Positions 38,601 through 53,217 of a DNA stretch of 64,000 nucleotides are shown here, in pieces (position 1 is the first letter of the stretch; each line of letters starts with the position of its first letter). Source of the DNA: an uncultured Bacteroidota bacterium. GTDB lineage: Bacteria > Bacteroidota > Bacteroidia > Bacteroidales > VadinHA17. Made by a program: the position numbers and the translations under genes. The notes beneath the pieces were generated by a model that ran no database searches, was not told the origin of the DNA, and saw only the letters and a program-made list of their open reading frames with translations. The stretch lies in the NCBI GenBank assembly GCA_903844815.1, contig CAIMVD010000101.1, positions 4,220-68,219 on the forward strand, written 5' to 3'.

Positions 38601-39392
38601 TCGCTTGGCATCTCGCCTGACCGACGGATAGCAAGCGGTGTACGTGCAGCCATTATCAGGGAGAAAGGTGTTAATGGCGACAGAGAAATGGCCTATGCAC
38701 TCTATCTGGCCGGCTTTGATGTAAAAGATGTCCATATGACCGACCTTATCTCGGGAAGAGAAACACTCGAAGATCTGAATATGATAGTATTTGTCGGAGG
38801 GTTCTCAAATTCAGATGTGCTTGGATCTGCAAAGGGTTGGGCCGGGGCATTCAAATATAACGAAAAGGCAAAAAGCACACTCGAAAACTTTTATAAAAGG
38901 GAAGATACTCTTTCCCTGGGTGTTTGCAATGGCTGTCAGCTAATGGTTGAACTTGGACTGGTTTATCCCGATCAAAAAAAGCGACCAGAACTCCATCACA
39001 ACAGATCACATAAATTCGAATCGGGATTTATAGGCGTAAAAATACAGGATAACAAATCAATAATGCTGGCCAACCTGAAGGGTATGGAACTGGGAATCTG
39101 GGTGGCTCACGGGGAAGGGAAATTTACATTACCTGATTCGGAAGATAAGTACAATATAGTTATGAAATACAGCAAGAGTTCATACCCGGCAAACCCAAAC
39201 GGATCCGATTACGATGTTGCTGGTTTATGTTCCGCTGATGGTCGCCATCTGGTAATGATGCCACATCTTGAGAGAGCCTATTTCCCATGGCAATGCGGAT
39301 TTTACCCCGAAGAGAATAAAAAAGACGATGTAACACCCTGGATGAAAGCGTTTGTTAATGCCAGAGAATGGATTGAAAAAATCAACGGGTAA
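35697..39392 (+). CDS. purL: Phosphoribosylformylglycinamidine synthase (large single-chain type)
   Basis: NSEHCRHKIFN, KAETHNFPT, HDHGAGG, GKDSLSM; glutaminase domain GVCNGCQ…MPHLER. Confidence 0.98.
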   Translation: MILFFESPSGNLIAAGTSDKLTQNDIEKLTWLFGNARMMEKESIQGFFVGPRKEMVTPWSTNAVEITQNMGIAGINRIEEFHLTESSLPHHDPMLQSVYQGLDQHLFTIDKVPDKVLYIDDIKEYNLKEGLALNNDEIAYLEGLRVSLGRKLTDSEVFGFSQVNSEHCRHKIFNGTFIISGEEKNDTLFQMIRETTKTNPNKVVSAYKDNCAFIQGPVVEQFAPSTQDKPDYFRIDDFESVLSIKAETHNFPTTVEPFNGAATGTGGEIRDRIAGGKGAFPIAGTAVYMTSYPRPDGNRSWEKATDERPWLYQTPEDILIKASNGASDFGNKFGQPLICGSVFTFEHFEHMKKFGYDKVIMLAGGIGIGKKKDSEKSIPEKGDIIVLLGGDNYRIGMGGGAVSSVDTGEFHSSIELNAVQRANPEMQKRVYNAIRAFSESDNNPVISIHDHGAGGHLNCLSELVEATGGRIDISKLPVGDPTLSAREIIGNESQERMGLVIKKKDAEVVRMISERERAPIYVIGEVTDDHQFTLVNSVTGEMPIDITLESLFGNPPKTVMNDSPVENGYRELKYDTEKIHEYLDQVLQLEEVACKDWLTNKVDRSVTGRIAKQQCAGPLQLPLNNLGAIALDYRGVKGMATSIGHAPAAGLVDPAAGSVLSIAEALTNIIWAPMPDMLSSVSLSANWMWPCKNQGEDARLYSAVKAASDFSIALGINIPTGKDSLSMTQKYSDQVVYSPGTVIISASGEVSEIRKIVEPVIVNDPATSLLYIDMSSDDFKTGGSSLAQILNRLGNEVPTVKDPEYFKTVFDTVQELISEDKIMAGHDISAGGMITTLLEMCFANISGGLMINLSAFDENDTVKILFSQNPGIIIQVSEADEAEIEEKLLENGISYYSIGHPIDERALLVANMNKNLKFSIDILRDKWFHTSYLLDRRQSGSEKALERYHHYKKHDLKFRLVSFDGSFKSLGISPDRRIASGVRAAIIREKGVNGDREMAYALYLAGFDVKDVHMTDLISGRETLEDLNMIVFVGGFSNSDVLGSAKGWAGAFKYNEKAKSTLENFYKREDTLSLGVCNGCQLMVELGLVYPDQKKRPELHHNRSHKFESGFIGVKIQDNKSIMLANLKGMELGIWVAHGEGKFTLPDSEDKYNIVMKYSKSSYPANPNGSDYDVAGLCSADGRHLVMMPHLERAYFPWQCGFYPEENKKDDVTPWMKAFVNAREWIEKING

Positions 39393-39951
39393 TTGGAGTC
39401 AGGAAAACTGAAATAAGTTTTGAACTGTCATCCGTATTGAGAGCAGCGGCATTATAATCCTTTGGAAGGATTTTATCACTGATGACTGTTATACTGTATG
39501 AACCTGTATCCTGAATATACAGGGAACCCAAAAACGAATCAGCCCTGAAATACGGATATGAGACATCAGATGAGTGCAGGACTATTTTATCGCAGCCGGG
39601 ACGCTTCTCAATATTATTTTCCCTTATATTAAACCTGACATTATTCCTGTATCTAAGATTTGTTGTATCAATAGTTGCACTTGACAGCCATACATCAAAC
39701 CGTCCGGATTTGGAAACCAGAACACTCCATTCGGCAGTGTTGTTTTTAGGGTCAGCCACATCGTGATAAAGGGCTGCCTTTTCAACTCTAAGCGAAATCG
39801 ATCCGTCTTTCTCCTGAAGGATCTTACTCCCGTCAGAATCGCTATTTACATCAGCTGTCGCTGTATTTTCACCTGAACCGACATTTTTGCCGCAAGAGCT
39901 GAAAAATGCAACCATTAATATCACTGAACATGTAAATAATATCCTTTTCAT
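39382..39951 (-). CDS. Hypothetical lipoprotein (beta-rich, possibly carbohydrate-binding-like)
   Basis: Start MKRILF at 39951 with lipobox FSSC; beta-strand-rich body; no family recognised with certainty. Confidence 0.7.
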   Translation of the reverse strand: MKRILFTCSVILMVAFFSSCGKNVGSGENTATADVNSDSDGSKILQEKDGSISLRVEKAALYHDVADPKNNTAEWSVLVSKSGRFDVWLSSATIDTTNLRYRNNVRFNIRENNIEKRPGCDKIVLHSSDVSYPYFRADSFLGSLYIQDTGSYSITVISDKILPKDYNAAALNTDDSSKLISVFLTPITR

Positions 39952-40254
39952 TTTCAATTCTTCTTTTAACATTTATCTGATTTTATAACGAGTTAAAGTC
40001 AATTTAAGTATAACACAGCAAAAAAAAATCAACTTTTTGAGCCTCAATTAACTAATCTGGTGGCTGGCTTTTTACGTGAAATAAAATTCTCAAACTATTC
40101 TTAACATTGCATTACGGGGTAAAGGTAACAAACTGATATCACAAAAAATATTCTTTTTGACAAGCGGTTAGTTTATTGTGATAATTGAGCTTTTTTGGGG
40201 ATTAAGCATTTTTATGGCTTTTTTCGCCTGTTTGAAAACCTGAATCTAATAAAG

Positions 40255-40304
40255 TTCCTGATTCTATCTGAATTCCTTTTTGAGGCTTCAGATAAAATCA
40301 GGAA
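40255..40304 (-). terminator. 18-bp stem hairpin downstream of iolG
   Basis: ttcctgattctatctgaa (40255-40272) pairs 17/18 with ttcagataaaatcaggaa (40287-40304). Confidence 0.7.
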
Positions 40305-40337: not shown

Positions 40338-41351
40338 TTAAATAATTTCTTTAAGTTTCACAGGTCTGCTCTCCAGATATGATTTTTTCGCAGCAATAGC
40401 AATTGCTACAGACATAAGTCCGTCGTAACCCGAAACGGGAAGAACCAGATTATTAATAATAGCGTTGCAAAATATTTTCATCTCATTAGCATAAGCTTCA
40501 AGATACCTGTCCATGAAGAAATTCAGAGGCAGGGCACCGTGAACTCCATCGCTACTGTAGAACCGGTGATTATCAGGAAAATTATTATCAGCACTGGCCA
40601 TACCTTTCGATCCGAATATTTCAACCCTCTGGTCGTAACCATAAACAGCTTTCCTGCTATTGTCAATCACTCCGATGGCTCCATTCTCAAAGGATAATGT
40701 AATAATTGCCGTATCAACGTCACCAGCCCTGCCTATTTCAGGATCTACAAGTACAGCAGCCTTTGTAAAGACCTCTGTAACCTCACTGCCGGCAATATAG
40801 CGGGCCATATCGAAATCATGAATTGTCATGTCCATAAACATTCCACCCGATACTGCGCTGTATTTGGCCGGAGGTGGTGCCGGGTCACGCGAAGTAATTT
40901 TAAGTATATGAGGTTCACCGATCTTTCCAGCTACAACCATCTGTTTAATTTTAAGAAAGTTAGGATCAAACCTCCGGTTAAAACCTACCATAAGTTTTAC
41001 GCCTGCCGATTCTACTGCCATTAAAGCCCCTTTTATAATCTCAAGCGACAGGTCAACAGGTTTTTCGCAAAAGATGTGCTTCCCGGCTTTTGCGGCATCA
41101 ACGATAATTTGGGCATGAGTGTCAGTAGATGAACATATTACAATGGCATCCACTCCGGAATGATTAATTACATCCAAATAGTTGCTATAGACTGATTTTA
41201 TGCCGAATTGTCCCGCAACCTCCTTTGCCGAATCAAGGTTTACATCGGCTACGGCAATAACTTCTGCCTGAGGTACATTTTGAACCAGAGTCGCAATGTG
41301 CACCTTACCTATGCGACCTGTTCCGATAACTCCAAGATTGATTTTTTCCAT
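40338..41351 (-). CDS. iolG: myo-Inositol 2-dehydrogenase
   Basis: GTGRIG, CEKPVDL, VGFNRRFDP, TSRDPAPP, DMTIHDFD and GYDQRVE. Confidence 0.93.
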   Translation of the reverse strand: MEKINLGVIGTGRIGKVHIATLVQNVPQAEVIAVADVNLDSAKEVAGQFGIKSVYSNYLDVINHSGVDAIVICSSTDTHAQIIVDAAKAGKHIFCEKPVDLSLEIIKGALMAVESAGVKLMVGFNRRFDPNFLKIKQMVVAGKIGEPHILKITSRDPAPPPAKYSAVSGGMFMDMTIHDFDMARYIAGSEVTEVFTKAAVLVDPEIGRAGDVDTAIITLSFENGAIGVIDNSRKAVYGYDQRVEIFGSKGMASADNNFPDNHRFYSSDGVHGALPLNFFMDRYLEAYANEMKIFCNAIINNLVLPVSGYDGLMSVAIAIAAKKSYLESRPVKLKEII

Positions 41352-41385
41352 TGGTATGATATTTTTTTGGTTTGAAGGGTTAAAA

Positions 41386-42285
41386 TTATAAGCTCAATGA
41401 TTTAAGGTAATTACGATTCCTGCCGGCACAAATTTCAGGATTTCCCATCCCGGGAAGCACATCCTGCTCCACGACTATCCATCCCGAGTATTCCTGATCA
41501 CGAAGTTCCTTTACTATTGCCGGAAAATCTACAGCGCCTTTTCCAAGTTCACAAAAAACTCCGCTGCCTACCGATTTGAAATAGTCCCAGCCTTCATTTC
41601 TTGATTGGTCTGCGATTTCAGGATGGCAATCCTTAAAATGAATATGCCATATCCTGCCATAATGATTCTTAAGCGCTGAAAGAGGATCGCCTCCGCCAAA
41701 CATATAATGGCCCATATCAAGTACAAGCCCTACAAGCAAAGGATCAGTGTATTCAAGAAGCTTGTCTATCTCAGCAGGTGTTTCAACATACCCTGCACAA
41801 TGATGATGAAAGACAGTGCGCAGGCCGGTTGATTTTTTCACTTCGGCGGCTACAAGATTCGCTCCTTCGGCAAAGATCTTCCATTCTGCGTCAGAGAGGC
41901 TCATTTCAGGTGTAATCCTTCCAGCGTTTTCAGTACGCTCTTTAATAGTACCGTTTTCATCGGCTAAAACGATAAATGCATCTTTATAGCCGGCATCAGC
42001 CATTAATTTTGCCGTTTTAACAGCTGCTTCCGCACCAGCAGCATGCTTTGATTTATCCTTCAGAAAAACCGGGACAAAGGCACCAACCATTGACAAATTT
42101 CTTTTTTCAAGTTCCGATTTCAGTTCTGAAGGAACAACCGGCATGAAACCCCAGTCTCCAAGTTCACTTCCCTCATAACCTGTATCGCGGATCTCATCAA
42201 GAACCTGGTCATAAGTGGCTGCTTTGCCTTCAAGATCAAATTCCAGGACGCCCCAGGAACATGGGGCATTAGCTATTTTTATCAT
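41386..42285 (-). CDS. iolE: Inosose dehydratase-like TIM-barrel protein
   Basis: ANAPCSWG, ELGDWGF, FHHH, DMGH, HIHFKD, FCELGKG and VVEQD; located in an iol operon. Confidence 0.85.
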   Translation of the reverse strand: MIKIANAPCSWGVLEFDLEGKAATYDQVLDEIRDTGYEGSELGDWGFMPVVPSELKSELEKRNLSMVGAFVPVFLKDKSKHAAGAEAAVKTAKLMADAGYKDAFIVLADENGTIKERTENAGRITPEMSLSDAEWKIFAEGANLVAAEVKKSTGLRTVFHHHCAGYVETPAEIDKLLEYTDPLLVGLVLDMGHYMFGGGDPLSALKNHYGRIWHIHFKDCHPEIADQSRNEGWDYFKSVGSGVFCELGKGAVDFPAIVKELRDQEYSGWIVVEQDVLPGMGNPEICAGRNRNYLKSLSL

Positions 42286-42315
42286 ATTAAGTTATTTATT
42301 TGGTACGTTAAAAAA

Positions 42316-43788
42316 TCAGAATTTTCTGCTCCACTCATCATGCCAGCGCTCAATGACAACCTTTGTCTGGGTATAGAACTCAATTGCATGCCCCGATTGT
42401 CCGTGCAGATCACCGAAGAAACTCTCTTTCCATCCGCTAAAGGGAAAGAAAGCCATCGGAGCCGCAATACCTATGTTTATCCCGATATTTCCTGCCAGCG
42501 CGTCGTGACGGAACTTCCTTGCTGCGGATCCGCTCCTTGTAAAGATGCATGCTGAATTTCCAAAACGGCTTTTATTGATTATCTCAATGGCAGCGTCCAG
42601 AGATGAGACATTTATTATTGTCAGTACCGGTCCGAAAATCTCGGTATTGTACAATTCACCATCCGGATCGACATTAGTCAGAACGGTTGGACCAATGAAG
42701 TTACCTTTTTCCAGGCCCGGGACAGAAATATTTCTGCCGTCGAGCAATAGGCGTGCACCTTCGGCAACACCTTTCTGTACTAGTTTTTCAATTCGTTCCT
42801 TGCTTTCAGGTGAAATCACCGGGCCCATTTCAGTCTCAGGCGACAATCCGTCGCCAGTCTTCTTCGACCGGGCAGCCTCTAAGATCTTTTCAGTAAAAAT
42901 TTCACCGGCACTACCCACTGTGATCACAACCGAAGCAGCCAGGCATCTCTGTCCGGCACATCCGAAAGCACTGTCGGCAATGATTCTGACGGTGGTTTCA
43001 ACATCGGCATCGGGCATCACCACAACAGGGTTTTTTGCACCGCCCTGAGCCTGAACGCGCTTGTTATATTTGACTCCGGTCTGGTAGATATATTTTGCCA
43101 CAGGTGAAGATCCCACAAAACTGATTGCTGGCACAAGCGGATTTTCGAGAATTGCATCTACAGTCTCCCTGCCACCGTGAACGAGGTTCAGCACACCCTT
43201 AGGAAGGTCCAGACCTTCAAAAAGTTCAAATATCCGGGCCATGGTCAGGGGAACTTTTTCCGAAGGCTTTACAATAAAAGTATTACCTGTAGCAATGGCA
43301 TAAGGCATGAACCAGAAAGGTATCATCACCGGAAAGTTAAAGGGCGATATACAAGCCCCGACGCCAAGCGGCTGACGTATATAGAACTCGTCTATACCTC
43401 GTGCAATATCTTCTGAAAAATCGCTCTGCATGAGTTTCGGAATGCCACAGGCAACTTCAATATTCTCAACGGCTCGTGTGATTTCAGCCTTTGACTCACC
43501 AAGTGTCTTCCCGCATTCCCTGGTGCATATTTCGGCAATCTCATCACCTTTAGCTTCAAGTATCTGCTTCATTTTAAAAAGATACTGAATCCTCTGCAAA
43601 GCAGGAGTATTTCGCCATGCAGGCCAGGCTTCATGAGCTTTTTCAGCAGCAATAATCACATCCTTCCCCGATCCTGCCGGGACCAGGGCAAGAAGCTGAC
43701 CTGTTGCAGGATTGATTACGTCGAGATATCCGGAACCGAGCGAATCAACCCATTCTCCGTTAATATAATTTTTAAGTTTAAGTGCCAT
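42316..43788 (-). CDS. iolA: CoA-acylating (methyl)malonate-semialdehyde dehydrogenase
   Basis: PFNFPVMIP, KPSEKVP, FVGSSPVA, QAQGGAKN, GCAGQRCLA and FFGDLH. Confidence 0.95.
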   Translation of the reverse strand: MALKLKNYINGEWVDSLGSGYLDVINPATGQLLALVPAGSGKDVIIAAEKAHEAWPAWRNTPALQRIQYLFKMKQILEAKGDEIAEICTRECGKTLGESKAEITRAVENIEVACGIPKLMQSDFSEDIARGIDEFYIRQPLGVGACISPFNFPVMIPFWFMPYAIATGNTFIVKPSEKVPLTMARIFELFEGLDLPKGVLNLVHGGRETVDAILENPLVPAISFVGSSPVAKYIYQTGVKYNKRVQAQGGAKNPVVVMPDADVETTVRIIADSAFGCAGQRCLAASVVITVGSAGEIFTEKILEAARSKKTGDGLSPETEMGPVISPESKERIEKLVQKGVAEGARLLLDGRNISVPGLEKGNFIGPTVLTNVDPDGELYNTEIFGPVLTIINVSSLDAAIEIINKSRFGNSACIFTRSGSAARKFRHDALAGNIGINIGIAAPMAFFPFSGWKESFFGDLHGQSGHAIEFYTQTKVVIERWHDEWSRKF

Positions 43789-43822
43789 TATTTAAATATT
43801 TCAAATTAGCAATTTTCAATTT

Positions 43823-45682
43823 TTAAAGGAAATACCGCTGTTTCTTCTTGTTCTCGGTATAAACTTCAAACGCCTTCTTAACTGTTTCAATTTCTGCAAC
43901 TTCCGAAACTGCAACTTCCCACCATGCATAGCCGGGAATACCCTTGTACAGGTCAGTCTCGATAGTAATAACTGTAGTCACTGTCTGTTTCTTTGCCTCT
44001 TCAATAGCAGATTTTAGTGAACTTATATCGTGTGCCTCAATTACGTTGGCGCCAAGGCTGCGGGCATTGCCTGCAAAATCGACCGGAAGAGTTTCACCAG
44101 TCAGTAACCCTGTTTTTTCATCGCGGTAACGGTATTTGGTACCGAAACGCTGTGACCCCACCGATTCCGATAATGCTCCAATGCTTCCATAACCGTTGTT
44201 ATTCAGAAGAATGATAATGAATTTTATCCCCTCCTGTATCGAAGTCACTAGTTCATTGTTCATCATCAGGTAGTTCCCGTCGCCAACCATTACGAATATT
44301 TCCCTGTCGGGGCAGGCCATTTTGGCTCCTATTCCGGCAGCGACTTCATATCCCATAGTAGAATATCCATATTCAAGATGGAATCCTTTGGGATCCGTTG
44401 TTCTCCATAGCTTATGCAGATCGCCGGGAAGGCTTCCTGCAGCGCAAAGAACCACATCGCGTGGCCCTGCAGCCTCATTTACAGCTCCTACAACTTCACC
44501 CTGTGTAACAGGACAGGAACCAGTGACTTTATAAAAATCACTTACCTGTTCATCCCATCTCCTGTTAAGGTCAGCTATCCTGTCAGTATATTCGGTCTGA
44601 GCATGGTAACCATCAAGCAGAACCAACAATTCTTCAAGACAGACTCTGGCATCTGCCGTCATTGGAAGAGCTGAATGTTTGAAGGAATCAAAATCGGCAA
44701 TGTTAATGTTGATAAATTTCACACCTGGATTTTGAAATGCTGTTTTGGATGCCGTTGTAAAGTCGCTGTACCTGGTGCCAATCCCTATCACAAGGTCAGC
44801 TTCGCCTGTTATCTCGTTAGCTCCAGGTGTTCCGGTTGCTCCGACTGCTCCGAGATTAGACGGATGGTTAAAAGGCAGTGACCCCTTTCCTGCAAAAGTT
44901 TCTGCAACAGGAATTCCTGTCAGATCAACAAAAGCTTTCAGTGCATCTGTAGCCTGACTGTAAATAACCCCGCCGCCGGCAATAATTACCGGCTTCTTTG
45001 AGGACCTGATCAAACCTGCGGCTTCCTTTGCAATTTCCCTGTCGGGTCGTGGCCTGGCAATCTTCCAGGTTCTTTTCCTGAAAAGCTCTTCAGGGAAATC
45101 ATAGGCCTCTGCCTGAACATCCTGTGGAATCGCAAGCGTTACTGCTCCCGTTTCGGAAGGAGAGGTCAGTACACGCATTACTTCGGGAAGAGAGGTAATC
45201 AACTGCTCCTGCCTGTTTATCCTGTCCCAGTATTTTGAAACAGGTTTAAAGCAATCATTCACTGAAATATCCTGAGTTGAAGCTGATTCCAGCTGCTGCA
45301 GTACGGGTGCCACATTCCTTCTGGCAAAAATATCACCGGGAATAATAAGCACCGGAATACGGTTTATTGTAGCACATGCTGCTCCTGTCACCATATTTGT
45401 AGCGCCAGGACCTATTGAAGAGATACAGGCGAAGGTTTGCAGACGGTTCTTCATTTTAGCATAGGCAATAGCAATATGAACCGATGCCTGCTCATTACGG
45501 GTCATATAATACCTGAAATCAGGATTTTCCATCAACCCCTCGCCTACCCCGGCAACTATTCCATGTCCGAATATGCCAAGGCAGCCTGCAAAGAACGGAT
45601 TTTCAACACCATCACATTCAACGTACTGGTTTTTCAGAAACCTTACAACCGCCTGCCCTACTGTCAATCTTATTGTTTTCAT
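43823..45682 (-). CDS. iolD: THcHDO hydrolase (ThDP-dependent ring-opening acylhydrolase)
   Basis: RLTVGQAVVRFL, GIFGHG, RNEQ, SIGPGATNM, AAGSLPGDLHKLW, EYGYSTMGYE and GDGNY. Confidence 0.95.
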   Translation of the reverse strand: MKTIRLTVGQAVVRFLKNQYVECDGVENPFFAGCLGIFGHGIVAGVGEGLMENPDFRYYMTRNEQASVHIAIAYAKMKNRLQTFACISSIGPGATNMVTGAACATINRIPVLIIPGDIFARRNVAPVLQQLESASTQDISVNDCFKPVSKYWDRINRQEQLITSLPEVMRVLTSPSETGAVTLAIPQDVQAEAYDFPEELFRKRTWKIARPRPDREIAKEAAGLIRSSKKPVIIAGGGVIYSQATDALKAFVDLTGIPVAETFAGKGSLPFNHPSNLGAVGATGTPGANEITGEADLVIGIGTRYSDFTTASKTAFQNPGVKFININIADFDSFKHSALPMTADARVCLEELLVLLDGYHAQTEYTDRIADLNRRWDEQVSDFYKVTGSCPVTQGEVVGAVNEAAGPRDVVLCAAGSLPGDLHKLWRTTDPKGFHLEYGYSTMGYEVAAGIGAKMACPDREIFVMVGDGNYLMMNNELVTSIQEGIKFIIILLNNNGYGSIGALSESVGSQRFGTKYRYRDEKTGLLTGETLPVDFAGNARSLGANVIEAHDISSLKSAIEEAKKQTVTTVITIETDLYKGIPGYAWWEVAVSEVAEIETVKKAFEVYTENKKKQRYFL

Positions 45683-45758
45683 TTTATAACAGAGTTCTTT
45701 ATATTGTTAATTAAGTGTCGTTTAGTTTAGTCTGGATAAAAAGTTTCTCACTCTTACT

Positions 45759-45823
45759 TTTTTACCCCACTGCCCCCAGGGGGGTGTTCTTAAATCCCCC
45801 CTTGGGGGGTTGGGGGGTAAAAA
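45759..45823. repeat. G/C-run REP-like nested hairpin between iolB and iolD
   Basis: ttttaccccactgcccccagggggg … ccccccttggggggttggggggtaaaa. There is an outer inverted repeat, and each arm contains a C5-6/G6 hairpin. Confidence 0.75.
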
Positions 45824-45942
45824 CACAAGAATAAAAGAGTGGTATTGGTGGTAAAATATTCCTTTCATGTTTGGTAATAATATTCCTTAACTAAATGCCA
45901 TTGATTGTTTATTCATGGATAATTTAACTCGTAATTCTGTTT

Positions 45943-46839
45943 TCAGGTTTTCAGGTTCATCTCCAGTGTTACTACCGGCACCCTGGGGTCCATCGCCTTC
46001 CAGGTACCGTAGATCCACTCATGGTCAGGATCGTTGCTGCTGGCAAGGCTCTGATCGGAGCCTGCAAGGAAATTAAGATAGTAGACGTTGTAACCATGAC
46101 CGGCCACCACAGGATGGTATCCCTCAGGTATAAGTACCACATCATTGTTATGAGCCTCGGCAATCTCATCAAGCGTCCGGCTGTCATTGTATACCTTCTG
46201 GATTGCAAAGCCCCGGGGTTTGTCGATCTTATAAAAATAAATCTCCTCCAAGTCCGCTTCCTTCAGAATACCAGTAGTAGGATCTGTTTTCCTCGTATCG
46301 TGCTTGTGAGCAGGAAATGAGCTCCAGTTTCCTGAGGGAGTATAGACTTCAACGCATACAAGGTGGTTGCATGGTGAACCGGGTGGAAGGATGCTGTTGA
46401 TCTGACGGCTGGCATTATCGCCACCCCTGTATTCGATACCCAATGAATTAACGTCGGAAGGAGTCATAAGCCTGGCAGGAAAACTTTTCTCCGCAGGGCA
46501 CCAACCGCAGGCAAGGTCCAAAAGTTCTCCGGCAGCCGAAATTTCAAACTCAGTATCCGGCGGAAGGTATAAAGCATGAGGAAGGCCTGAAAAAACATTA
46601 CGCCGTGCATCAGCTGTTGTCCAACTCCCCTTCGAAGTATTGGCAAACATATTGCCGCCAAGAATGACAAAGAGGTATTCACTACTTCCGGTTTCACCCG
46701 ACCATTTTTGGCCGGGCTTTAAAGTCCTTGCAAGGAAATTCAGATTCTTCCATCCTGCTTCAGAAGAGCTAAGATGCTGGTAGATCTCTTCTCCGGGAGA
46801 AGATTTTGCCAGAACCTTACATTTTTTATCACGATTCAT
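45943..46839 (-). CDS. iolB: 5-Deoxy-glucuronate isomerase
   Basis: LVCVEVYTPSGNWSSFPAHKHD, LEEIYFY, VLIPEGYHP and YYLNFLAG. Confidence 0.95.
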   Translation of the reverse strand: MNRDKKCKVLAKSSPGEEIYQHLSSSEAGWKNLNFLARTLKPGQKWSGETGSSEYLFVILGGNMFANTSKGSWTTADARRNVFSGLPHALYLPPDTEFEISAAGELLDLACGWCPAEKSFPARLMTPSDVNSLGIEYRGGDNASRQINSILPPGSPCNHLVCVEVYTPSGNWSSFPAHKHDTRKTDPTTGILKEADLEEIYFYKIDKPRGFAIQKVYNDSRTLDEIAEAHNNDVVLIPEGYHPVVAGHGYNVYYLNFLAGSDQSLASSNDPDHEWIYGTWKAMDPRVPVVTLEMNLKT

Positions 46840-46852
46840 TGCTAAATTACTT

Positions 46853-48661
46853 TTACCAGAAAAAATAATAGAGTGAGGCCAGTATACCGCAGATCCCTAT
46901 CGCAGCAATGTTGAAAGTCATTGACGTATGAAAAATACCGCTATGAAGGTTAATGCTCGCTGAATCTTTCTTTTTAAGAGTATTATTCAGAATCATTATG
47001 AGACCTGTAAGAATTATCATAACAATCGGCACATAAATTGCTTCAAGTGCCAGATTCCTGAGCGGATGAACAAAGAAGGCGGATATGATACCTGCAAGCA
47101 TTGCAACTGCAATAAGTTTATAGCCGATCTTAATAATTTTAATGCCTTTATTACCGTCAAAGACATTTTCAACCTTTCGTGTCTTATCCATAAGGCTCAT
47201 ACCGACCATCACGAACGAAAGAAGTATGAAGACATATCCTATCCTGAGGACGAAAGGCATTTCGGGGAAGCATATCTTCATCACCAGTCCTAGTGGGATT
47301 GTAAGCAATGCGGTCCAAAGAGCTGCTTTAGAAGAAGATTGTCTCCAAAACAGGCCACAGAAGAAGATCAGAAACTCGCCAGGATAAATGAACCCGGTAT
47401 ATTCCTGAATGTACTGGTAAGCCTGATCGAGAGATCCCAGTTGGGGAGCAATTATTGTTGAAATTGTAAGGGCAACAAGCGCCACTATCTGACCTACCTT
47501 CACCATCTGCCTGTCAGTAGCATTCTTATTGATGTAGCTTTTATAAATATCCATCGTAAAAATGGTAGAAGTACTATTCACAATTGAACTTATTGAAGAG
47601 ACAGCCGCAGCCGCAATAGCAGCGAATGAAAGACCTGTAATACCAACCGGTACAATATTCCGGATAAGCCATGGATAGGCTTCATCGGATTTTCCAAGTT
47701 TTGCCCCTAATGCAAAGACAGCTATACCCGGGATTACAACCAAAAGCGGGATTAAAAGTTTCAGATAGCCGGCAAATACAACTCCAAGCTGGGCTTCCCT
47801 TATTGTTTTTCCTGCAAGCCCCCTTTGAATAATGAATTGATTGAATCCCCAGAAGCTAAGATTGGTAAGCCACATCGAACCAAGTACTACACCAAGACCA
47901 GGAAGATCTGAAAAGGCGTCTTTGAGACCACCTTTCCCATCAGGGGCAAAGAGAGTTCCCTTAGAAATTATCATATGAAATTTCTGCGGAGCTCTGCTTA
48001 TCAATTCGTTAAATCCGGCTAAAACTCCGTGACCATCGCTTAAGGCATTAAGAGCAAATCCGGTTGTAATAAGGCCTCCAATTATCAAAACAATTACATT
48101 TATTACATCTGTCCAGGCAACTGCTTTCATTCCGCCCCATAATGAGTAGAGTGCCGAAAATAAAGAAAAGCCTATAATCCCGTAAATCAATGGTATCCCG
48201 ATGATTCGTTCCATTGCCAGAGCACCCAGATAAATAACCGCAGTCATGTTTACAAAAATGTAAACGAGGATCCAGAAGACTGCAAAAACCGTACTCACCC
48301 TTTTATCATACCGGTCCGAAAGAAACTGCGGCATCGTAAATATGCCCTTCTCAATGAAGACAGGGAGGAAATACTTAGCTACAAATATCAGACAAATGGC
48401 AGCAATCCACTCATAAGCGGCGATTGCCAGACCTATCGCATAACCCGACCCCGACATAGCAATGAAATGCTCTGCCGAAATATTTGCTGCCAGGAGTGTT
48501 GAACCGATAGCCCACCAGGGGAGCGAACGTCCGGCCAGAAAATAGTCATCCGAAGTCCTCTGTTCTCCTTTTTTCTTGCGGGAAACCCATAGACCTACGC
48601 CTACAATGATTAAGGCATAAACAATAAAAATAATCCAGTCGAGTAAAGCAAATTCTTTCAA
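46853..48661 (-). CDS. Sodium:solute symporter (vSGLT-type), probable inositol uptake
   Basis: YFLAGRSLPWWAIG…ANISAEHF, AYEW, WGFNQFIIQR, AAAVSSISS and YIQEYTG. Confidence 0.9.
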   Translation of the reverse strand: MKEFALLDWIIFIVYALIIVGVGLWVSRKKKGEQRTSDDYFLAGRSLPWWAIGSTLLAANISAEHFIAMSGSGYAIGLAIAAYEWIAAICLIFVAKYFLPVFIEKGIFTMPQFLSDRYDKRVSTVFAVFWILVYIFVNMTAVIYLGALAMERIIGIPLIYGIIGFSLFSALYSLWGGMKAVAWTDVINVIVLIIGGLITTGFALNALSDGHGVLAGFNELISRAPQKFHMIISKGTLFAPDGKGGLKDAFSDLPGLGVVLGSMWLTNLSFWGFNQFIIQRGLAGKTIREAQLGVVFAGYLKLLIPLLVVIPGIAVFALGAKLGKSDEAYPWLIRNIVPVGITGLSFAAIAAAAVSSISSIVNSTSTIFTMDIYKSYINKNATDRQMVKVGQIVALVALTISTIIAPQLGSLDQAYQYIQEYTGFIYPGEFLIFFCGLFWRQSSSKAALWTALLTIPLGLVMKICFPEMPFVLRIGYVFILLSFVMVGMSLMDKTRKVENVFDGNKGIKIIKIGYKLIAVAMLAGIISAFFVHPLRNLALEAIYVPIVMIILTGLIMILNNTLKKKDSASINLHSGIFHTSMTFNIAAIGICGILASLYYFFW

Positions 48662-48679
48662 TTCCTTAGTTTTTAGTTG

Positions 48680-49786
48680 TTAATCCGGTACAATAAGCAT
48701 CATCTCCCGCATTTTTGCTGTCAGGTTTGCGGTTGCCTGTGAAAATTGGGTAAGGGTCATAACCGTAGCCCCAAAACCATCAAACTCTTCTATTGTCATC
48801 CCGTCTTCATGGTATGCACGGCGAAAATCAGTGAATTTTTTTTCAAGTTCCTCAATAATTGCCTTACCAACAGGCACATCCATACGATTTTCAACACTGA
48901 CATCCGATGCGTTATACCGTTTTTGCCATTGATACGGAGGAGATATTACCACATCACCTCCTATAAATTCCGACCAGTGAAGGTGATTCCTGAACGCAGC
49001 GCTTAAAAGCCTCAGGCGATAACCTCTCTCCCTGAATATTGCATAAGCTTTTTTCATCACTGCAACGCCCGCCCAATCGAAGATATGAGGATTTGCGATA
49101 ATATTCCTTTTATCAGCAACATGCCGCAACCAGTCGTCAAGCCTTCCTACCATCAGGGTACAAACCGGCCCCATGGAGCTAATATCCTTACCCTCTTTCT
49201 CGCGCCTGGTCAATCCCCTTTCAACAGCCTCGGCAACTGCTATTGCCTGCGGGAGGGTAAAGCTAACGGTTGCGTTTATGCTCACCCCCAGGTAAGTAGC
49301 CTCCTCAATGGCCTTTACCCCGGCTTTTGTTACCGGAATTTTTACTATCATATTAGGAGCCAGCTGACTGAAATGAACCGCCTGCTTTACGATTTTGTCA
49401 GTATCACGGTATAATCTCGGATCGGTCTGAATAGAAAGACGCCCGTTGCGTCCTTTTTCCCTGTCAAAAACCGGCTTTAGGACACCAGCGGCTTTAACCG
49501 ACATGGCCTCAATAAGTTTCCACGCTACATCATCTTCGGAATATGCAGGATTATCATTAATGATCTGAATAATCGTATCCTTCCATTTATCCCACTCCTG
49601 TTTAAGAACGTTCCATACTATGACCGGATTGCAGGTTGCTCCATTAGCTCCATGCTCAATTGAATACATAAGCTCCTCAATTGAACATGAATCATTCCAC
49701 AGAACTGTGGGAGTGCTCTGCGTCATTTTATGAAGAGGGCTCTTGTAATTCATCTTCTGATTCAGTTCATCACTAATAATATCCAT
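48680..49786 (-). CDS. Transaldolase-fold class I (Schiff-base) enzyme with an atypical active site
   Basis: LWNDS, ATCNPV, RLSIQTDPRL, IVKIP (K149), INATVSF, LMVGRLDD and AAFRN align with TalB motifs. Alternative start at 49753. Confidence 0.9.
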   Translation of the reverse strand: MDIISDELNQKMNYKSPLHKMTQSTPTVLWNDSCSIEELMYSIEHGANGATCNPVIVWNVLKQEWDKWKDTIIQIINDNPAYSEDDVAWKLIEAMSVKAAGVLKPVFDREKGRNGRLSIQTDPRLYRDTDKIVKQAVHFSQLAPNMIVKIPVTKAGVKAIEEATYLGVSINATVSFTLPQAIAVAEAVERGLTRREKEGKDISSMGPVCTLMVGRLDDWLRHVADKRNIIANPHIFDWAGVAVMKKAYAIFRERGYRLRLLSAAFRNHLHWSEFIGGDVVISPPYQWQKRYNASDVSVENRMDVPVGKAIIEELEKKFTDFRRAYHEDGMTIEEFDGFGATVMTLTQFSQATANLTAKMREMMLIVPD

Positions 49787-49887: not shown

Positions 49888-50112
49888 ATTTTAATTCACA
49901 TATACTATTTTTACATTCTTACCATTCTATGGTGATATTTTAGCATTTTTCGAATATATCCCAAAGCATCAGGCTAATTTGAGTAATTTACTGTGTGAGT
50001 ATTTGTAATCAGTAACAGAATTATCAATTATGTTAATTTACTTCCCCCATGAGAGATAGCTGTTAAGTTAAGCCAAGATAGAAAACGGAAATATAGAGAT
50101 TTAAAAAAATCG

Positions 50113-50259
50113 GACTGTCAAAAAAGTCCTCCGTGGTCCTCAGTGGCACCTCTGTGGTCCTCTGTGAAAGTTCTTAACAGTTTGTTACACAGAGATCCAC
50201 AGAGAAGGCACGGAGATCCACAGAGGCCTGAAGTTAAAATTCGTGCTTTTTAGACAGCC
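50113..50259. mobile_element. MITE-like element of about 147 bp containing a four-unit hairpin
   Basis: Ends gactgtcaaaaaag and ctttttagacagcc form a 12/14 inverted repeat. Internal arms of four 10-nt units lie at 50128-50168 and 50187-50226. No clear target-site duplication. Confidence 0.45.
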
Positions 50260-50310: not shown

Positions 50311-53217
50311 TCAAAAAATGACCTCAATGAATTTTACCTCAAATGGTTTAAGAGTCACTGACGAGAGCTTCTGCCCTATCTGAACACCAAGCGTATTAAC
50401 CTCCGTAATCCCCGAAACTGATAAATCAGGCAATGCCGACGATATTTTTACTTCTGCCGGCTTTCCGTCAGTTTCCCTGAAATGCAGCAATATAGTCCTC
50501 TCCTTTTTAAACACAGGACGTGTATTAACAAGGAGGGCATTTTCAGAACCCTCAATATTCAGGGTTTTGAGGCTGAAATCCTTCAGCTTATTCTCTCCTG
50601 CCGGAAAGGTTCTTGTAAGAAAAGGATTTCGTTCGCCCCATGAATATTTTGCAGCGAAGGAATTTGAGGTATCGCGAGTGGAAGTAATCTGGTAGCTCCA
50701 TGTGAATGCGCCTTCCTGAAAGGCTCTGAAGTTGGTGAACCAGTAATTATTCATGACGTAGGAATAGAGCCATGCCTTGCCTGCCTTTGGGTTCCTTTCG
50801 TATTTCCCAAGGTTGAAATCGCTAAACTGCCATAAGGGCGCCTCGTTGCTAACAACTATTATTTGTCCTGTTTTGCCTCTTACTGCCACAAAGTTCTGAA
50901 CAGTATTCCAATCGGTTGATGAGCCAGGCAACTGATCTCCCTGCGACAATGTCCCCCCGATTGTTTCGAAGACAATCCGCGATTGCGGCAGGGTGAAAGG
51001 GAAAGCCACATACAGAGCTTCCGGAGAAGTTACAATTTCCTTGTTTGCACTGAAAACGAACTCAGCCTTTTTTGAGTTTTTGTAAAGACGTATTTCGACT
51101 TCAACTCCTTTCGGATTTTCCAGCTTCCCCGCGGTAAATCCGTCGAGATCTGCACCAATTTTTATGCTTTCCCATACCTGTCCGGATTCTCCGGCTTCTA
51201 CCCTAACATTCCTCACAGTTGTATGTGTCAGAGCCATCGAATCACGGTTCGGAACCGTTTCATGAACAAGCTGACCGATCAGATAAGGATTATTATGGTC
51301 AATAAGATCGGTACCAAGATCCTTATCAAAAAGACCACTGACGGCTCCGGTTTTTTTATCAACAGTAATCCTGTAATATTGGTTTTCAAGGATCTCAATG
51401 CCGGAAGAAACCTGGTTAACCTGAGGTTCCTGTGAGTCGCCTGTCTCAACTTTCAGGGCTTTAAAGCCTAACGCGGGCACCTCTTTTACATCAAGCATCC
51501 AATAGGCTCCTTCCGAACGCCTTGTAAGCATCTGAGAGGGAACTTCAGCACCCGTAGAAAGATCGATAAGCCTCACCTTTCTATTCAATGGAAGTATCTG
51601 GCCGTCAATAAAAAGCTTCACATTACCTGATCGCTTCCACCCCATCGGGTTCACGACATATATTACCGGGAATTCTGCCTTAGGAAGAAATTGCTGAAAC
51701 CTTGCATTAGCCTCTTCATTGAGAAGGGTAACCTGTTTAAGCGCCTCCCATGCATAAGATCCTTTCATGAGCCACTGTTTTGTAGTATTCTCCGAAAAGG
51801 GACGATCGATACTCTCATCGGCCCCGGAAGTATGCTCATCGAAGAAGATTGCATTTTCGTTGATATGAGCTATTTTCTCTTCGGTCAACGGACTAAGCTC
51901 GCCTTTCAACATCGAGACCATTGCAAAAAGAGCCTCATCGGTTTGTAAAAGATTCTGGGTCTTTCTTACCTCGGCTGTTTCGCGTGATGAGGAACCAAAG
52001 CCGTCGGTCCACCAGTCGGGCCATGCTTTCCTGTAGACAGGCAGGCTTGCAGAATAATTCTTCTGAACATATTCAGGAAATTCGCTTGCCAGGGCGAGCC
52101 TGAGTTTTGGAGATTCATACTTTGAATTCCAATCCTCAACTACCTTGCAGGCAGCCGTTGAAGGAGGTGCATTATCGGTCCAGTAGCCAGAAAACTGAAT
52201 CCCGATTTTATCAAAAGGATATCCCTTCGAATCGATGTCGGCGATATGATCGAGCAATTTATATTCATTTAATGCCTTGCTGTGTATCCCGTAAAAATTA
52301 CCGGTATGGTAATGGTCGGCCCTGAAGGCAAGCAGTCTCTCACCGGAGGGAGCCTCCCACCAGAAGGCAGTAGGTTTGTCGAAGGGAAGTACCGACCTGG
52401 TCTCATTAATGCCCATTATCAGGTATTTTACCCCTGTATTCTTAAAATAATCGGGCATGCACCAGGCTATACCATTCACATCGTTCTGCATGGCGCTCGT
52501 GACAGGAATACCCTGAGCAACAAGTTCCTTTAGGGGCTGAAGAAAATCGAACATAATGTTTTCATCGGTGATCTCGGCCATATTTGCGAACATTGCAGTC
52601 ACCTCAATACGGCCTTCGGCAATCCTTTTCTTCAACCTTTCGATCTGGTATTTTGGCCTGGTGCGCATGAACTCACGTGTTACCCAGGCCGATTCGCAGG
52701 TCCATCTGAATTTGCTGTCATCAGGCAGGTTATCGGTCTGGTCGCAATAATCAAGGGCATAGTCGATATACCTTATCTGTTCTGCAAGTATTTCCGACTG
52801 GGGCCTCGTATAACCGATATCGGTATGGGAATGCTGTACAAATAATATCTCCCATTTTTTGGGTGGGATGAGCTGAAAAGGGATCTTAACCTCTGCATTC
52901 CTGTTGACTCTTACAGAAATTGTTAACTTTTCAGGTTTGCTTACAGCAGGGACAGTTAACAGGAATTTATTCTTCTCTGTGTTAAAATCAGAAGAAAGAA
53001 CCTGTTTTCCTGAGATTGATATTACAACATTTCCCATATCAGGGGATTTAATTTCAGCCAGAATCTGCTGATATGATTTCCCTCCCTCTTTAAAGAGAAC
53101 AGGTGCATTCTTGAATCCGACAAATGTTTCGTCTTTAACCTGACCATATACAGGCATTGCAGCACACAGCAGCAGAAATATCATGATAGCTTCGGGAAGT
53201 ACTCTTTTCTTCATCAT
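50311..53217 (-). CDS. Secreted GH38-like glycoside hydrolase (alpha-mannosidase-like)
   Basis: Signal peptide, HSHTDIGYT, FRWTCES, MQNDVNG…W and W…WTDG; GH38-type middle and C-terminal beta domains. Confidence 0.8.
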   Translation of the reverse strand: MMKKRVLPEAIMIFLLLCAAMPVYGQVKDETFVGFKNAPVLFKEGGKSYQQILAEIKSPDMGNVVISISGKQVLSSDFNTEKNKFLLTVPAVSKPEKLTISVRVNRNAEVKIPFQLIPPKKWEILFVQHSHTDIGYTRPQSEILAEQIRYIDYALDYCDQTDNLPDDSKFRWTCESAWVTREFMRTRPKYQIERLKKRIAEGRIEVTAMFANMAEITDENIMFDFLQPLKELVAQGIPVTSAMQNDVNGIAWCMPDYFKNTGVKYLIMGINETRSVLPFDKPTAFWWEAPSGERLLAFRADHYHTGNFYGIHSKALNEYKLLDHIADIDSKGYPFDKIGIQFSGYWTDNAPPSTAACKVVEDWNSKYESPKLRLALASEFPEYVQKNYSASLPVYRKAWPDWWTDGFGSSSRETAEVRKTQNLLQTDEALFAMVSMLKGELSPLTEEKIAHINENAIFFDEHTSGADESIDRPFSENTTKQWLMKGSYAWEALKQVTLLNEEANARFQQFLPKAEFPVIYVVNPMGWKRSGNVKLFIDGQILPLNRKVRLIDLSTGAEVPSQMLTRRSEGAYWMLDVKEVPALGFKALKVETGDSQEPQVNQVSSGIEILENQYYRITVDKKTGAVSGLFDKDLGTDLIDHNNPYLIGQLVHETVPNRDSMALTHTTVRNVRVEAGESGQVWESIKIGADLDGFTAGKLENPKGVEVEIRLYKNSKKAEFVFSANKEIVTSPEALYVAFPFTLPQSRIVFETIGGTLSQGDQLPGSSTDWNTVQNFVAVRGKTGQIIVVSNEAPLWQFSDFNLGKYERNPKAGKAWLYSYVMNNYWFTNFRAFQEGAFTWSYQITSTRDTSNSFAAKYSWGERNPFLTRTFPAGENKLKDFSLKTLNIEGSENALLVNTRPVFKKERTILLHFRETDGKPAEVKISSALPDLSVSGITEVNTLGVQIGQKLSSVTLKPFEVKFIEVIF

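Follow-up and report, generated by a model that had tools for sequence, protein, structure and literature searches.

A 64-kb stretch of DNA from an uncultured Bacteroidota bacterium of the order Bacteroidales, hereafter the window, carries a seven-gene operon for myo-inositol catabolism that opens with a transaldolase-like (TAL-like) gene, whose likely role is the subject of this analysis. The window lies on contig C101 (positions 4,220 to 68,219 of CAIMVD010000101.1) of an assembly (GCA_903844815.1) of 6.37 Mb in 411 contigs that is 97.8% complete. On its minus strand, seven open reading frames (ORFs) follow one another from 49786 to 40338: the TAL-like gene, a sodium:solute symporter (SSS) gene, iolB, iolD, iolA, iolE and iolG. 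Computed from the ORF coordinates, the distances between successive genes are 18, 13, 260, 34, 30 and 34 nt. An earlier sequence-only reading had described seven co-oriented genes with gaps of 13-34 nt apart from 260 nt between iolB and iolD, and the ORFs lie exactly where it had placed them.

The TAL-like gene (48680-49786, minus strand like every gene of the operon) encodes 368 aa, matches PF00923 (TAL_FSA) at 133 bits and is a candidate transaldolase for 5-dehydro-2-deoxy-D-gluconate (DKG). The 602-aa SSS protein behind it, which has a TTG start (46853-48661; PF00474 232 bits, TIGR00813 337 bits), is probably the inositol importer. Next come iolB (45943-46839), for the 5-deoxy-glucuronate isomerase that makes DKG (TIGR04378 304 bits, cut-off 205), and iolD (43823-45682), for the thiamine diphosphate (ThDP)-dependent 3D-(3,5/4)-trihydroxycyclohexane-1,2-dione hydrolase (TIGR04377 897 bits, cut-off 715). 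The CoA-acylating (methyl)malonate-semialdehyde dehydrogenase (MMSDH) gene iolA occupies 42316-43788 (TIGR01722 562 bits, cut-off 448). A divergent iolE for myo-inosose-2 dehydratase follows at 41386-42285; it scores 212 bits on TIGR04379, under the cut-off of 290, and aligns over 2-296 of its 299 aa. The last gene, iolG (40338-41351), encodes inositol 2-dehydrogenase (TIGR04380 461 bits, cut-off 355). The canonical upper-pathway set of IolG, IolE, IolD and IolB, together with IolA, is therefore complete within the operon, with four of the five over their curated cut-offs and IolE at full length below its own.

The operon's boundaries agree with the sequence-only reading, which had placed a -7 promoter in front of the TAL-like gene and a strong hairpin after iolG. 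A box of the Bacteroidota type TAnnTTTG, TATCTTTG, is found by motif match only at 49887-49880 (minus strand), about 95 nt before the TAL-like start codon. Beyond iolG, a hairpin at 40304-40255 (minus strand) has an 18-bp stem whose arms (40255-40272 and 40287-40304) are 94% complementary; it is likely a terminator or RNA-end structure, and a consensus terminator scan made no call there. The wide gap between iolB and iolD contains a palindromic dispersed repeat of about 85 nt, rich in C and G runs (ACCCCCCAACCCCCCAAGGGGGG...CCCCCCTGGGGGCAGTGGGG; 45760-45843, inverted repeat 45752-45830). This repeat has 118 blastn matches genome-wide, many of them at contig ends; it resembles a repetitive extragenic palindrome (REP) or miniature inverted-repeat transposable element (MITE) and seems to interrupt the assembly as well. 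The thought that the gap marks an internal promoter or regulatory site was rejected: the dispersed repeat accounts for the gap and the iolB-iolD spacing in relatives is 23 nt, so the operon is not split by design.

A second dispersed hairpin repeat (50120-50225), built of cctcWgtgg-type units and joined by a terminator-like stem with a T-run (50129-50112), makes up with it the stretch 50112-50225 on the minus strand, between the upstream gene and the iol promoter; it has about 70 blastn matches in the genome. That upstream gene, on the same strand at 50311-53217, encodes a GH38 alpha-mannosidase-like protein of 968 aa. The same order of GH38 and TAL genes recurs in a 73%-identical JGI contig, which also carries a GH92 gene and an AraC regulator, and suggests that the operon may be connected with the utilisation of mannosides or glycans. 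Beyond the iolG hairpin, a 196-aa ORF on the same strand (39382-39972) matches no Pfam or NCBIfam family.

The TAL-like protein is a clear member of the TAL/FSA superfamily, reaching 132.9 bits on PF00923 where the gathering cut-off is 27. The curated NCBIfam transaldolase and FSA models all leave it far below their cut-offs (124 of 367 bits for NF002881, 87 of 234 for TIGR00876 and 66 of 396 for TIGR00874), and the nearest solved structure by sequence, the transaldolase of C. glutamicum, gives 65 bits. An AlphaFold (AF2) model built with 26 family members has a pLDDT of 94.8 and a pTM of 0.91. Searched against the PDB with Foldseek, all of the best 50 listed matches are of the transaldolase family, with TM scores of 0.81-0.83 to 3r5e at about 20% identity; Corynebacterium and Neisseria transaldolases are the closest folds. 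The model thus predicts with confidence a transaldolase TIM barrel.

Alignment with E. coli TalB and FsaA, with conservation counted across 268 family members, shows which parts of the catalytic site are kept. The Schiff-base lysine, Lys149 (TalB Lys132, FsaA Lys85), is present in 257 of the 268 members, and Asp32 (TalB Asp17), Asn53 (Asn35) and the pair Asn171/Thr173 (Asn154/Thr156) are also retained. Both arginines of the anion site are in place as well: Arg215 (TalB Arg181), found in 259 members, and the phosphate-site residue Arg266 (TalB Arg228). Also kept are Asn171 and Thr210, which align with the residues reported to contact the donor C1-OH in TalB. Other positions set the family apart. 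Gln120 replaces TalB Glu96 and matches FsaA Gln59, and is Gln in 252 members; Met212 stands at TalB Phe178, where FSA has Tyr131, and is Met in 251; Ala264 corresponds to TalB Ser226. The subfamily also has residues of its own, namely W30-N31, Cys52 and H268/H270/W271. His268 and His270, near Arg266, are speculative candidates for an acid/base role or for carboxylate binding. The protein belongs to a long-type TAL subfamily of its own, whose catalytic signature is Gln/Met.

The idea that the operon's enzyme is the only transaldolase of the cell was rejected, as the genome holds a second TAL-family gene (C167:24010-25227, minus strand). Its 405-aa product keeps the classical Glu/Phe pair and carries a C-terminal extension of about 100 aa. 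It too scores far short of all NCBIfam transaldolase cut-offs, and may represent a housekeeping type that has gone unrecognised. Because it retains Glu and Phe, this second protein can serve the pentose-phosphate pathway, and the iol copy need not be a housekeeping enzyme.

Neither a PfkB kinase nor a class II aldolase occurs in the 64-kb window, as the sequence-only reading had said, and the genome-wide search for iolC and iolJ orthologues that it had called for yielded none. No protein in the whole genome passes the IolC cut-off of 300 bits (TIGR04382), the best PfkB protein reaching 107.7 bits, and DUF2090 (PF09863) is absent. Searches by tblastn with two Cgl0159-like aldolases and one IolJ, all from acidobacterial iol clusters, found no Cgl0159-like or IolJ-like gene in the genome; with four acidobacterial IolC queries they returned only generic PfkB proteins at 22-30% identity. 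The genome's PfkB genes adjoin ribokinase-type, nucleoside-hydrolase or sorbitol-dehydrogenase genes, none of them related to inositol. Its sole class II fructose-bisphosphate aldolase, on another contig (C82), is 26% identical to IolJ from an iol cluster and looks like a housekeeping enzyme.

Relatives of the TAL-like protein are common and keep company with inositol genes. Metagenomic relatives number in the thousands at 73-88% identity, and at least 583 species genomes from about eight phyla carry one (one genome per species was scanned). A search of 50%-identity representatives gave 354 clusters at E <= 1e-30. Neighbourhoods were counted within 10 kb for the best 80 of the at least 583 species loci (62-77% identity, with eight closer sequences as query). 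These 80 loci come from Bacteroidales, Rikenellaceae, Prolixibacteraceae, Spirochaetota, many Acidobacteriota, Verrucomicrobiota, Chloroflexota, Rhodothermales, Gemmatimonadota and Methylomirabilota. Within this distance, iolG is found in 48 of the 80, iolD in 46, iolB in 41, iolE in 38 and iolA in 27, a conserved linkage. In five loci without iolD (L036, L050, L051, L071 and L075), iolA sits directly beside the TAL gene.

Three contexts inspected individually (L012, L013 and a JGI contig) contain the same SSS/TAL/iolB/D/A/E/G cluster with SSS and TAL swapped in order, and an orthologue of the 602-aa symporter adjoins the TAL gene in each. Unbiased clustering of neighbours across the 80 loci recovers LacI regulators, TonB-dependent receptor-like proteins, Zn-dehydrogenases, APC permeases, a DegT aminotransferase, ABC components and reductases as recurrent families; neither a kinase nor an aldolase family is among them. 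One 655-aa protein among the 354 representative clusters (P0129) joins the two functions physically, with a full IolE in its N-terminal half (341 bits, over the cut-off) fused to a member of the TAL-like subfamily. With 62-77% identity from phylum to phylum, the iol/TAL cluster seems to be passed on as one piece. Samples of species genomes around the source genome contain the gene only in its own genus, in 1 of 401 at phylum level and 2 of 201 at order level, so it is rare among Bacteroidota species representatives despite the thousands of metagenomic matches.

Acidobacterial TAL-type clusters (L030, L037, L040 and others) often include further genes: a DegT/DnrJ/EryC1 aminotransferase, one or two APC-family permeases, a Zn-dehydrogenase, a LacI regulator and a 1230-aa TonB-dependent-receptor-like protein. 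This content hints at the use of an aminocyclitol or of conjugated inositol.

Co-occurrence in whole genomes points in the same direction as the neighbourhoods. Across 50 TAL-bearing genomes, IolC never passes the cut-off, and IolD is present in 41 (39 over the cut-off and two truncated). Fourteen named control genomes have IolD over the cut-off in three (B. subtilis, Caulobacter and C. glutamicum) and IolC likewise in three. An even sample of 251 Acidobacteriota contains IolD in 20 genomes, a close TAL homologue in five and both in four; IolD is therefore found in 4 of 5 TAL-positive against 16 of 246 TAL-negative genomes (odds ratio 57, p = 1.4e-4, phylogeny being ignored). Among the 20 acidobacterial genomes with IolD, six have IolC and four have TAL, with no overlap, and within the sampled Acidobacteriota the IolC-type and TAL-type clusters are mutually exclusive. 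Pooling all IolD-positive genomes gives IolC in 0 of 44 with TAL against 9 of 19 without it (p = 4e-6, again ignoring phylogeny). The anti-correlation with iolC that the sequence-only reading had proposed to test is what the genomes display.

Acidobacterial clusters of the IolC type run in the order iolB-IolC-aldolase-iolD, with a Cgl0159-like (PF22649) or class II IolJ aldolase, and the aldolase adjoins IolC in four of the six IolC-positive genomes. The remaining ten IolD-positive Acidobacteriota have an IolD homologue with no iolB within 10 kb, about 45% identical to the window's IolD in nine and 59% in G775. They were not counted as a third pathway type, the protein being an IolD-like paralogue with no iolB nearby. 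Nine such loci (L118-L126; genomes G886, G832, G728, G805, G785, G877, G859, G716 and G868) score 810-846 bits, above the TIGR04377 cut-off, with no iolB, IolC or TAL near. Their protein may be a ThDP hydrolase paralogue that acts on something else, in which case the IolD equivalog model would misname it.

The best reading of these data, and one that seems reasonably likely, is that the TAL-like enzyme splits DKG in its unphosphorylated form, yielding malonate semialdehyde, and hands on the dihydroxyacetone unit to glyceraldehyde 3-phosphate (GAP), giving fructose 6-phosphate (F6P). The SSS symporter would import inositol, and IolG, IolE, IolD and IolB, assigned by family membership, would convert it to unphosphorylated DKG as in the textbook route. 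Lys149 would then form a Schiff base with the C5 keto group of DKG, and the C3-C4 bond would be broken. Malonate semialdehyde would be released for IolA to turn into acetyl-CoA, CO2 and NADH. The enzyme-bound dihydroxyacetone would most likely be transferred to GAP, or to erythrose 4-phosphate, yielding F6P or sedoheptulose 7-phosphate. Such a route would need no dedicated kinase or DKG-6-phosphate aldolase, and the phosphoryl input would shift to phosphofructokinase (PFK).

Several lines of reasoning lead to this reaction. IolB makes DKG, IolA uses malonate semialdehyde, and the TAL-like protein is the sole unassigned enzyme of the operon, so it would bridge the missing step. When its carbons are counted from the keto end, DKG starts with a free CH2OH and a C2 ketone, followed by D-threo hydroxyls at C3 and C4, a CH2 and a terminal carboxylate. 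The sequence-only reading had judged this arrangement suited to a transaldolase, and it does match that of fructose; DKG would be a chemically sound, fructose-like donor in which a carboxylate replaces the phosphate-bearing tail. The residues aligned with the C1-OH contacts of TalB are conserved, which argues that the C6-OH of DKG is free and that no kinase acts on it. The absence of IolC from all 50 carriers and the conservation of a kinase-less cluster at 62-77% across phyla argue likewise. To our knowledge, no TAL/FSA superfamily enzyme uses a donor phosphorylated at C1, which is taken as a further argument for the free C6-OH.

That the TAL-fold enzyme would stand in for both IolC and IolJ, as the sequence-only reading had suggested, is strongly supported by the linkage to iol genes, the IolE-TAL fusion, the absence of IolC and the mutual exclusivity of the two cluster types. 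Comparative genomics does not extend this to the whole family: about a fifth of the close homologues lie in genomes without IolD, and the family is therefore not strictly specific for inositol. A broader proposal is that a widespread, unnamed long-TAL subfamily has a Gln/Met site specialised for unphosphorylated keto-sugar acids, this member being a DKG:GAP dihydroxyacetone transferase that forms F6P and malonate semialdehyde. The case for that proposal is evenly balanced.

The same reading had also foreseen a saving of ATP, which holds only under one condition. When DKG and GAP give F6P and malonate semialdehyde, and PFK and aldolase then act, GAP is regenerated and one dihydroxyacetone phosphate (DHAP) is gained for one phosphoryl donor spent. 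Because that donor is still spent at PFK, the ATP cost equals that of the canonical IolC route by default, and a saving arises only if the PFK depends on pyrophosphate (PPi). The genome has five PFK-family paralogues: C100:56798-57760, C101:98500-99417, two adjacent genes at C267:41910-44410, and C95:14429-15043. One has an ATP-type signature (GGDGS/PGTIDND), the two adjacent C267 genes are of the PPi type (GGDDT/PKT), and two are mixed (GGNGT or GGDGT with PKT); the assignment to ATP or PPi follows a signature rule that we assume to apply here. The more general gain would be a direct supply of F6P without gluconeogenesis, with one enzyme replacing two.

Some observations weigh against DKG cleavage by transfer as the enzyme's role. 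Nine of the 50 TAL carriers have no IolD (six Spirochaetota, two Chloroflexota and one Gemmatimonadota, all of them metagenome-assembled genomes, MAGs). Homologues in genomes without IolD are 66-71% identical (L021, L022, L024, L026, L045, L052 and L088 in Spirochaetota; L050 and L059 in Chloroflexota; L071 in Gemmatimonadota). Their neighbourhoods are mixed, with GFO/IDH/MocA oxidoreductases, ABC binding proteins, an L-arabinose isomerase, an SDR, an IclR regulator and, in some, iolA; a FucI-type isomerase and a tungsten AOR were not seen in the three spirochaete loci scanned. Such varied neighbours in IolD-less carriers mean that the family may accept other donors. The co-occurrence statistics leave phylogeny aside, and many of the genomes counted are MAGs. 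At the active site, the classical acid/base Glu has become Gln in 252 of 268 members and position 212 is neither Phe nor Tyr, so that the sequence neither reveals the acid/base residue nor decides between transferase and lyase. In principle, the canonical steps could also be carried out by a generic PfkB kinase together with the housekeeping class II aldolase. Finally, the TAL-like gene appears in no metatranscriptome run (share 0.00); the DNA sequencing runs that contain it are lake-water metagenomes.

The choice between transferase and lyase bears directly on one alternative, in which an FSA-like enzyme would split DKG into malonate semialdehyde and free dihydroxyacetone without an acceptor, the latter being phosphorylated by glycerol kinase, or reduced to glycerol before phosphorylation. 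Gln120 matches FsaA Gln59 rather than TalB Glu96, the genome encodes a glycerol kinase that shares 57% identity with E. coli GlpK, and one relative's cluster has a glycerol facilitator and an FGGY kinase nearby. Yet the catalytic Tyr of FSA is missing, with Met at position 212 in 251 of 268 members; DhaK, DhaL and DhaM are absent from the genome by tblastn, and no dihydroxyacetone kinase family recurs in the 80 neighbourhoods. Transfer is favoured over release on these grounds, and free dihydroxyacetone would still cost one ATP, with no obvious gain over IolC plus IolJ, which makes a lyase unlikely. It is more doubtful still, and decidedly so, that the enzyme replaces only the aldolase, with an unrecognised kinase elsewhere making DKG-6-phosphate for cleavage to DHAP and malonate semialdehyde. 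Several PfkB kinases of the genome have no assigned specificity, and three spirochaete carriers have PfkB proteins that reach 220-228 bits on the IolC model, under its 300-bit cut-off. The conserved C1-OH contacts speak against such a substrate, as does the lack of any C1-phosphorylated donor known to us in the superfamily; in addition, none of the 50 carriers tested has IolC over the cut-off, no kinase recurs near the cluster, and the genome's own PfkB genes sit in unrelated sugar contexts.

A different substrate, such as another unphosphorylated keto-sugar acid or an aminocyclitol-derived ketose within a broader keto-acid transaldolase role, is distinctly unlikely for the window's enzyme. 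The IolD-less carriers favour it, as do loci that pair TAL with iolA alone, the aminotransferases, APC permeases and Zn-dehydrogenases of Acidobacteriota, and the GFO/IDH/MocA, ABC binding and L-arabinose isomerase genes of spirochaetes. The window's operon, however, comprises the complete iolG-E-D-B-A set in minimal form, and no other gene in it could supply the enzyme or draw off its product; the IolE fusion also indicates the canonical intermediate, as does the exclusivity with IolC. Most improbable of all is an ordinary pentose-phosphate transaldolase that merely shares its location or regulation with iol genes, perhaps to keep sugar phosphates in balance while the cell grows on inositol. 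Membership of PF00923 and the retention of both phosphate-binding arginines would fit that role, and neither of the genome's TAL proteins reaches an NCBIfam transaldolase cut-off. Still, the Glu/Phe pair is lost throughout this family but kept in the C167 protein, the step from DKG to malonate semialdehyde would be left without an enzyme, and a housekeeping enzyme would not be expected to show tight linkage across phyla, fusion to IolE or exclusivity with IolC.

A DKG-cleaving transaldolase would matter beyond this genome. myo-Inositol, which phytate and lipids supply, is one of the major carbon sources of plant and soil origin; its pathway serves as a genomic marker, and iolC is counted as core in surveys. 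If the proposed reaction is correct, inositol users among the Acidobacteriota, Bacteroidota, Spirochaetota, Verrucomicrobiota and Chloroflexota escape iolC-based surveys, GapMind and KEGG modules, and the published figure of 3% for Bacteroidetes would be an underestimate. The enzyme would add to the transaldolase superfamily a new reaction, in which a Gln/Met active site acts on a donor that ends in a carboxylate, and would define a new EC activity. The inositol pathway would gain a third, kinase-independent ending that supplies hexose phosphate with no need for gluconeogenesis and saves one ATP per inositol if the PFK depends on PPi. It would also be the second natural case, after sulfo-TAL, in which handing a C3 unit to central metabolism replaces phosphorylation of the substrate. 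The enzyme could also find use in biocatalysis, forming C-C bonds from donors that carry no phosphate.

Compared with the canonical iol pathway of B. subtilis and Salmonella (IolG, IolE, IolD, IolB, IolC, IolJ and IolA), the upper route and the malonate-semialdehyde dehydrogenase step are alike. The DKG kinase and the DKG-6-phosphate aldolase, whether class II IolJ, DUF2090 or Cgl0159-like, are missing here, and a TAL-family gene is present instead. The DUF2090 aldolase, fused to IolC in many Proteobacteria, is the only alternative in the inositol pathway that the literature search turned up (PMC9007349). A full-text literature search found no description of a transaldolase in inositol catabolism, in line with the earlier impression that this variant had not been described.

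The closest parallel in pathway logic is sulfo-TAL, in which an isomerase makes an unphosphorylated, anion-tailed ketose, sulfofructose transaldolase moves the C1-C3 unit to GAP to form F6P, and the remaining C3 aldehyde is oxidised (PMC12890257). Here too the isomerase (IolB), the TAL-like enzyme and the dehydrogenase (IolA) share one operon, with the kinase found in neither operon nor genome, although the likeness is one of analogy only. The parallel drawn by the sequence-only reading therefore holds for mechanism and fails for descent: sulfofructose transaldolase (SqvA/SftT, BmSF-TAL, 8bc3) does not belong to the same clade, matching with just 29.3 bits over residues 113-185. The 8bc3 enzyme belongs to a short TalC/FSA-like subfamily of about 220 aa, whereas the window's enzyme is a 368-aa long-type TAL with a Gln/Met pair. 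Their donors would differ as well, a sulfonate in the former and, in the latter, a carboxylate two carbons from the scissile bond.

Classical transaldolases (TalB and C. glutamicum 3r5e) share with the window's enzyme the TIM barrel, the Schiff-base Lys, the equivalents of Asp17, Asn35 and Thr156, and both phosphate-site Arg residues. Unlike TalB, which has the Glu96/Phe178 pair, the window's enzyme has Gln120 and Met212, and overall identity is about 20%. With FSA, typified by FsaA (Gln59/Tyr131, a decamer of subunits of about 220 aa), the Gln is common to both, whereas the Tyr position is Met212 in this 368-aa long-type protein. Taken together, these comparisons describe a known fold and a known pathway logic that a distinct subfamily, both widespread and uncharacterised, has apparently brought to a textbook pathway.

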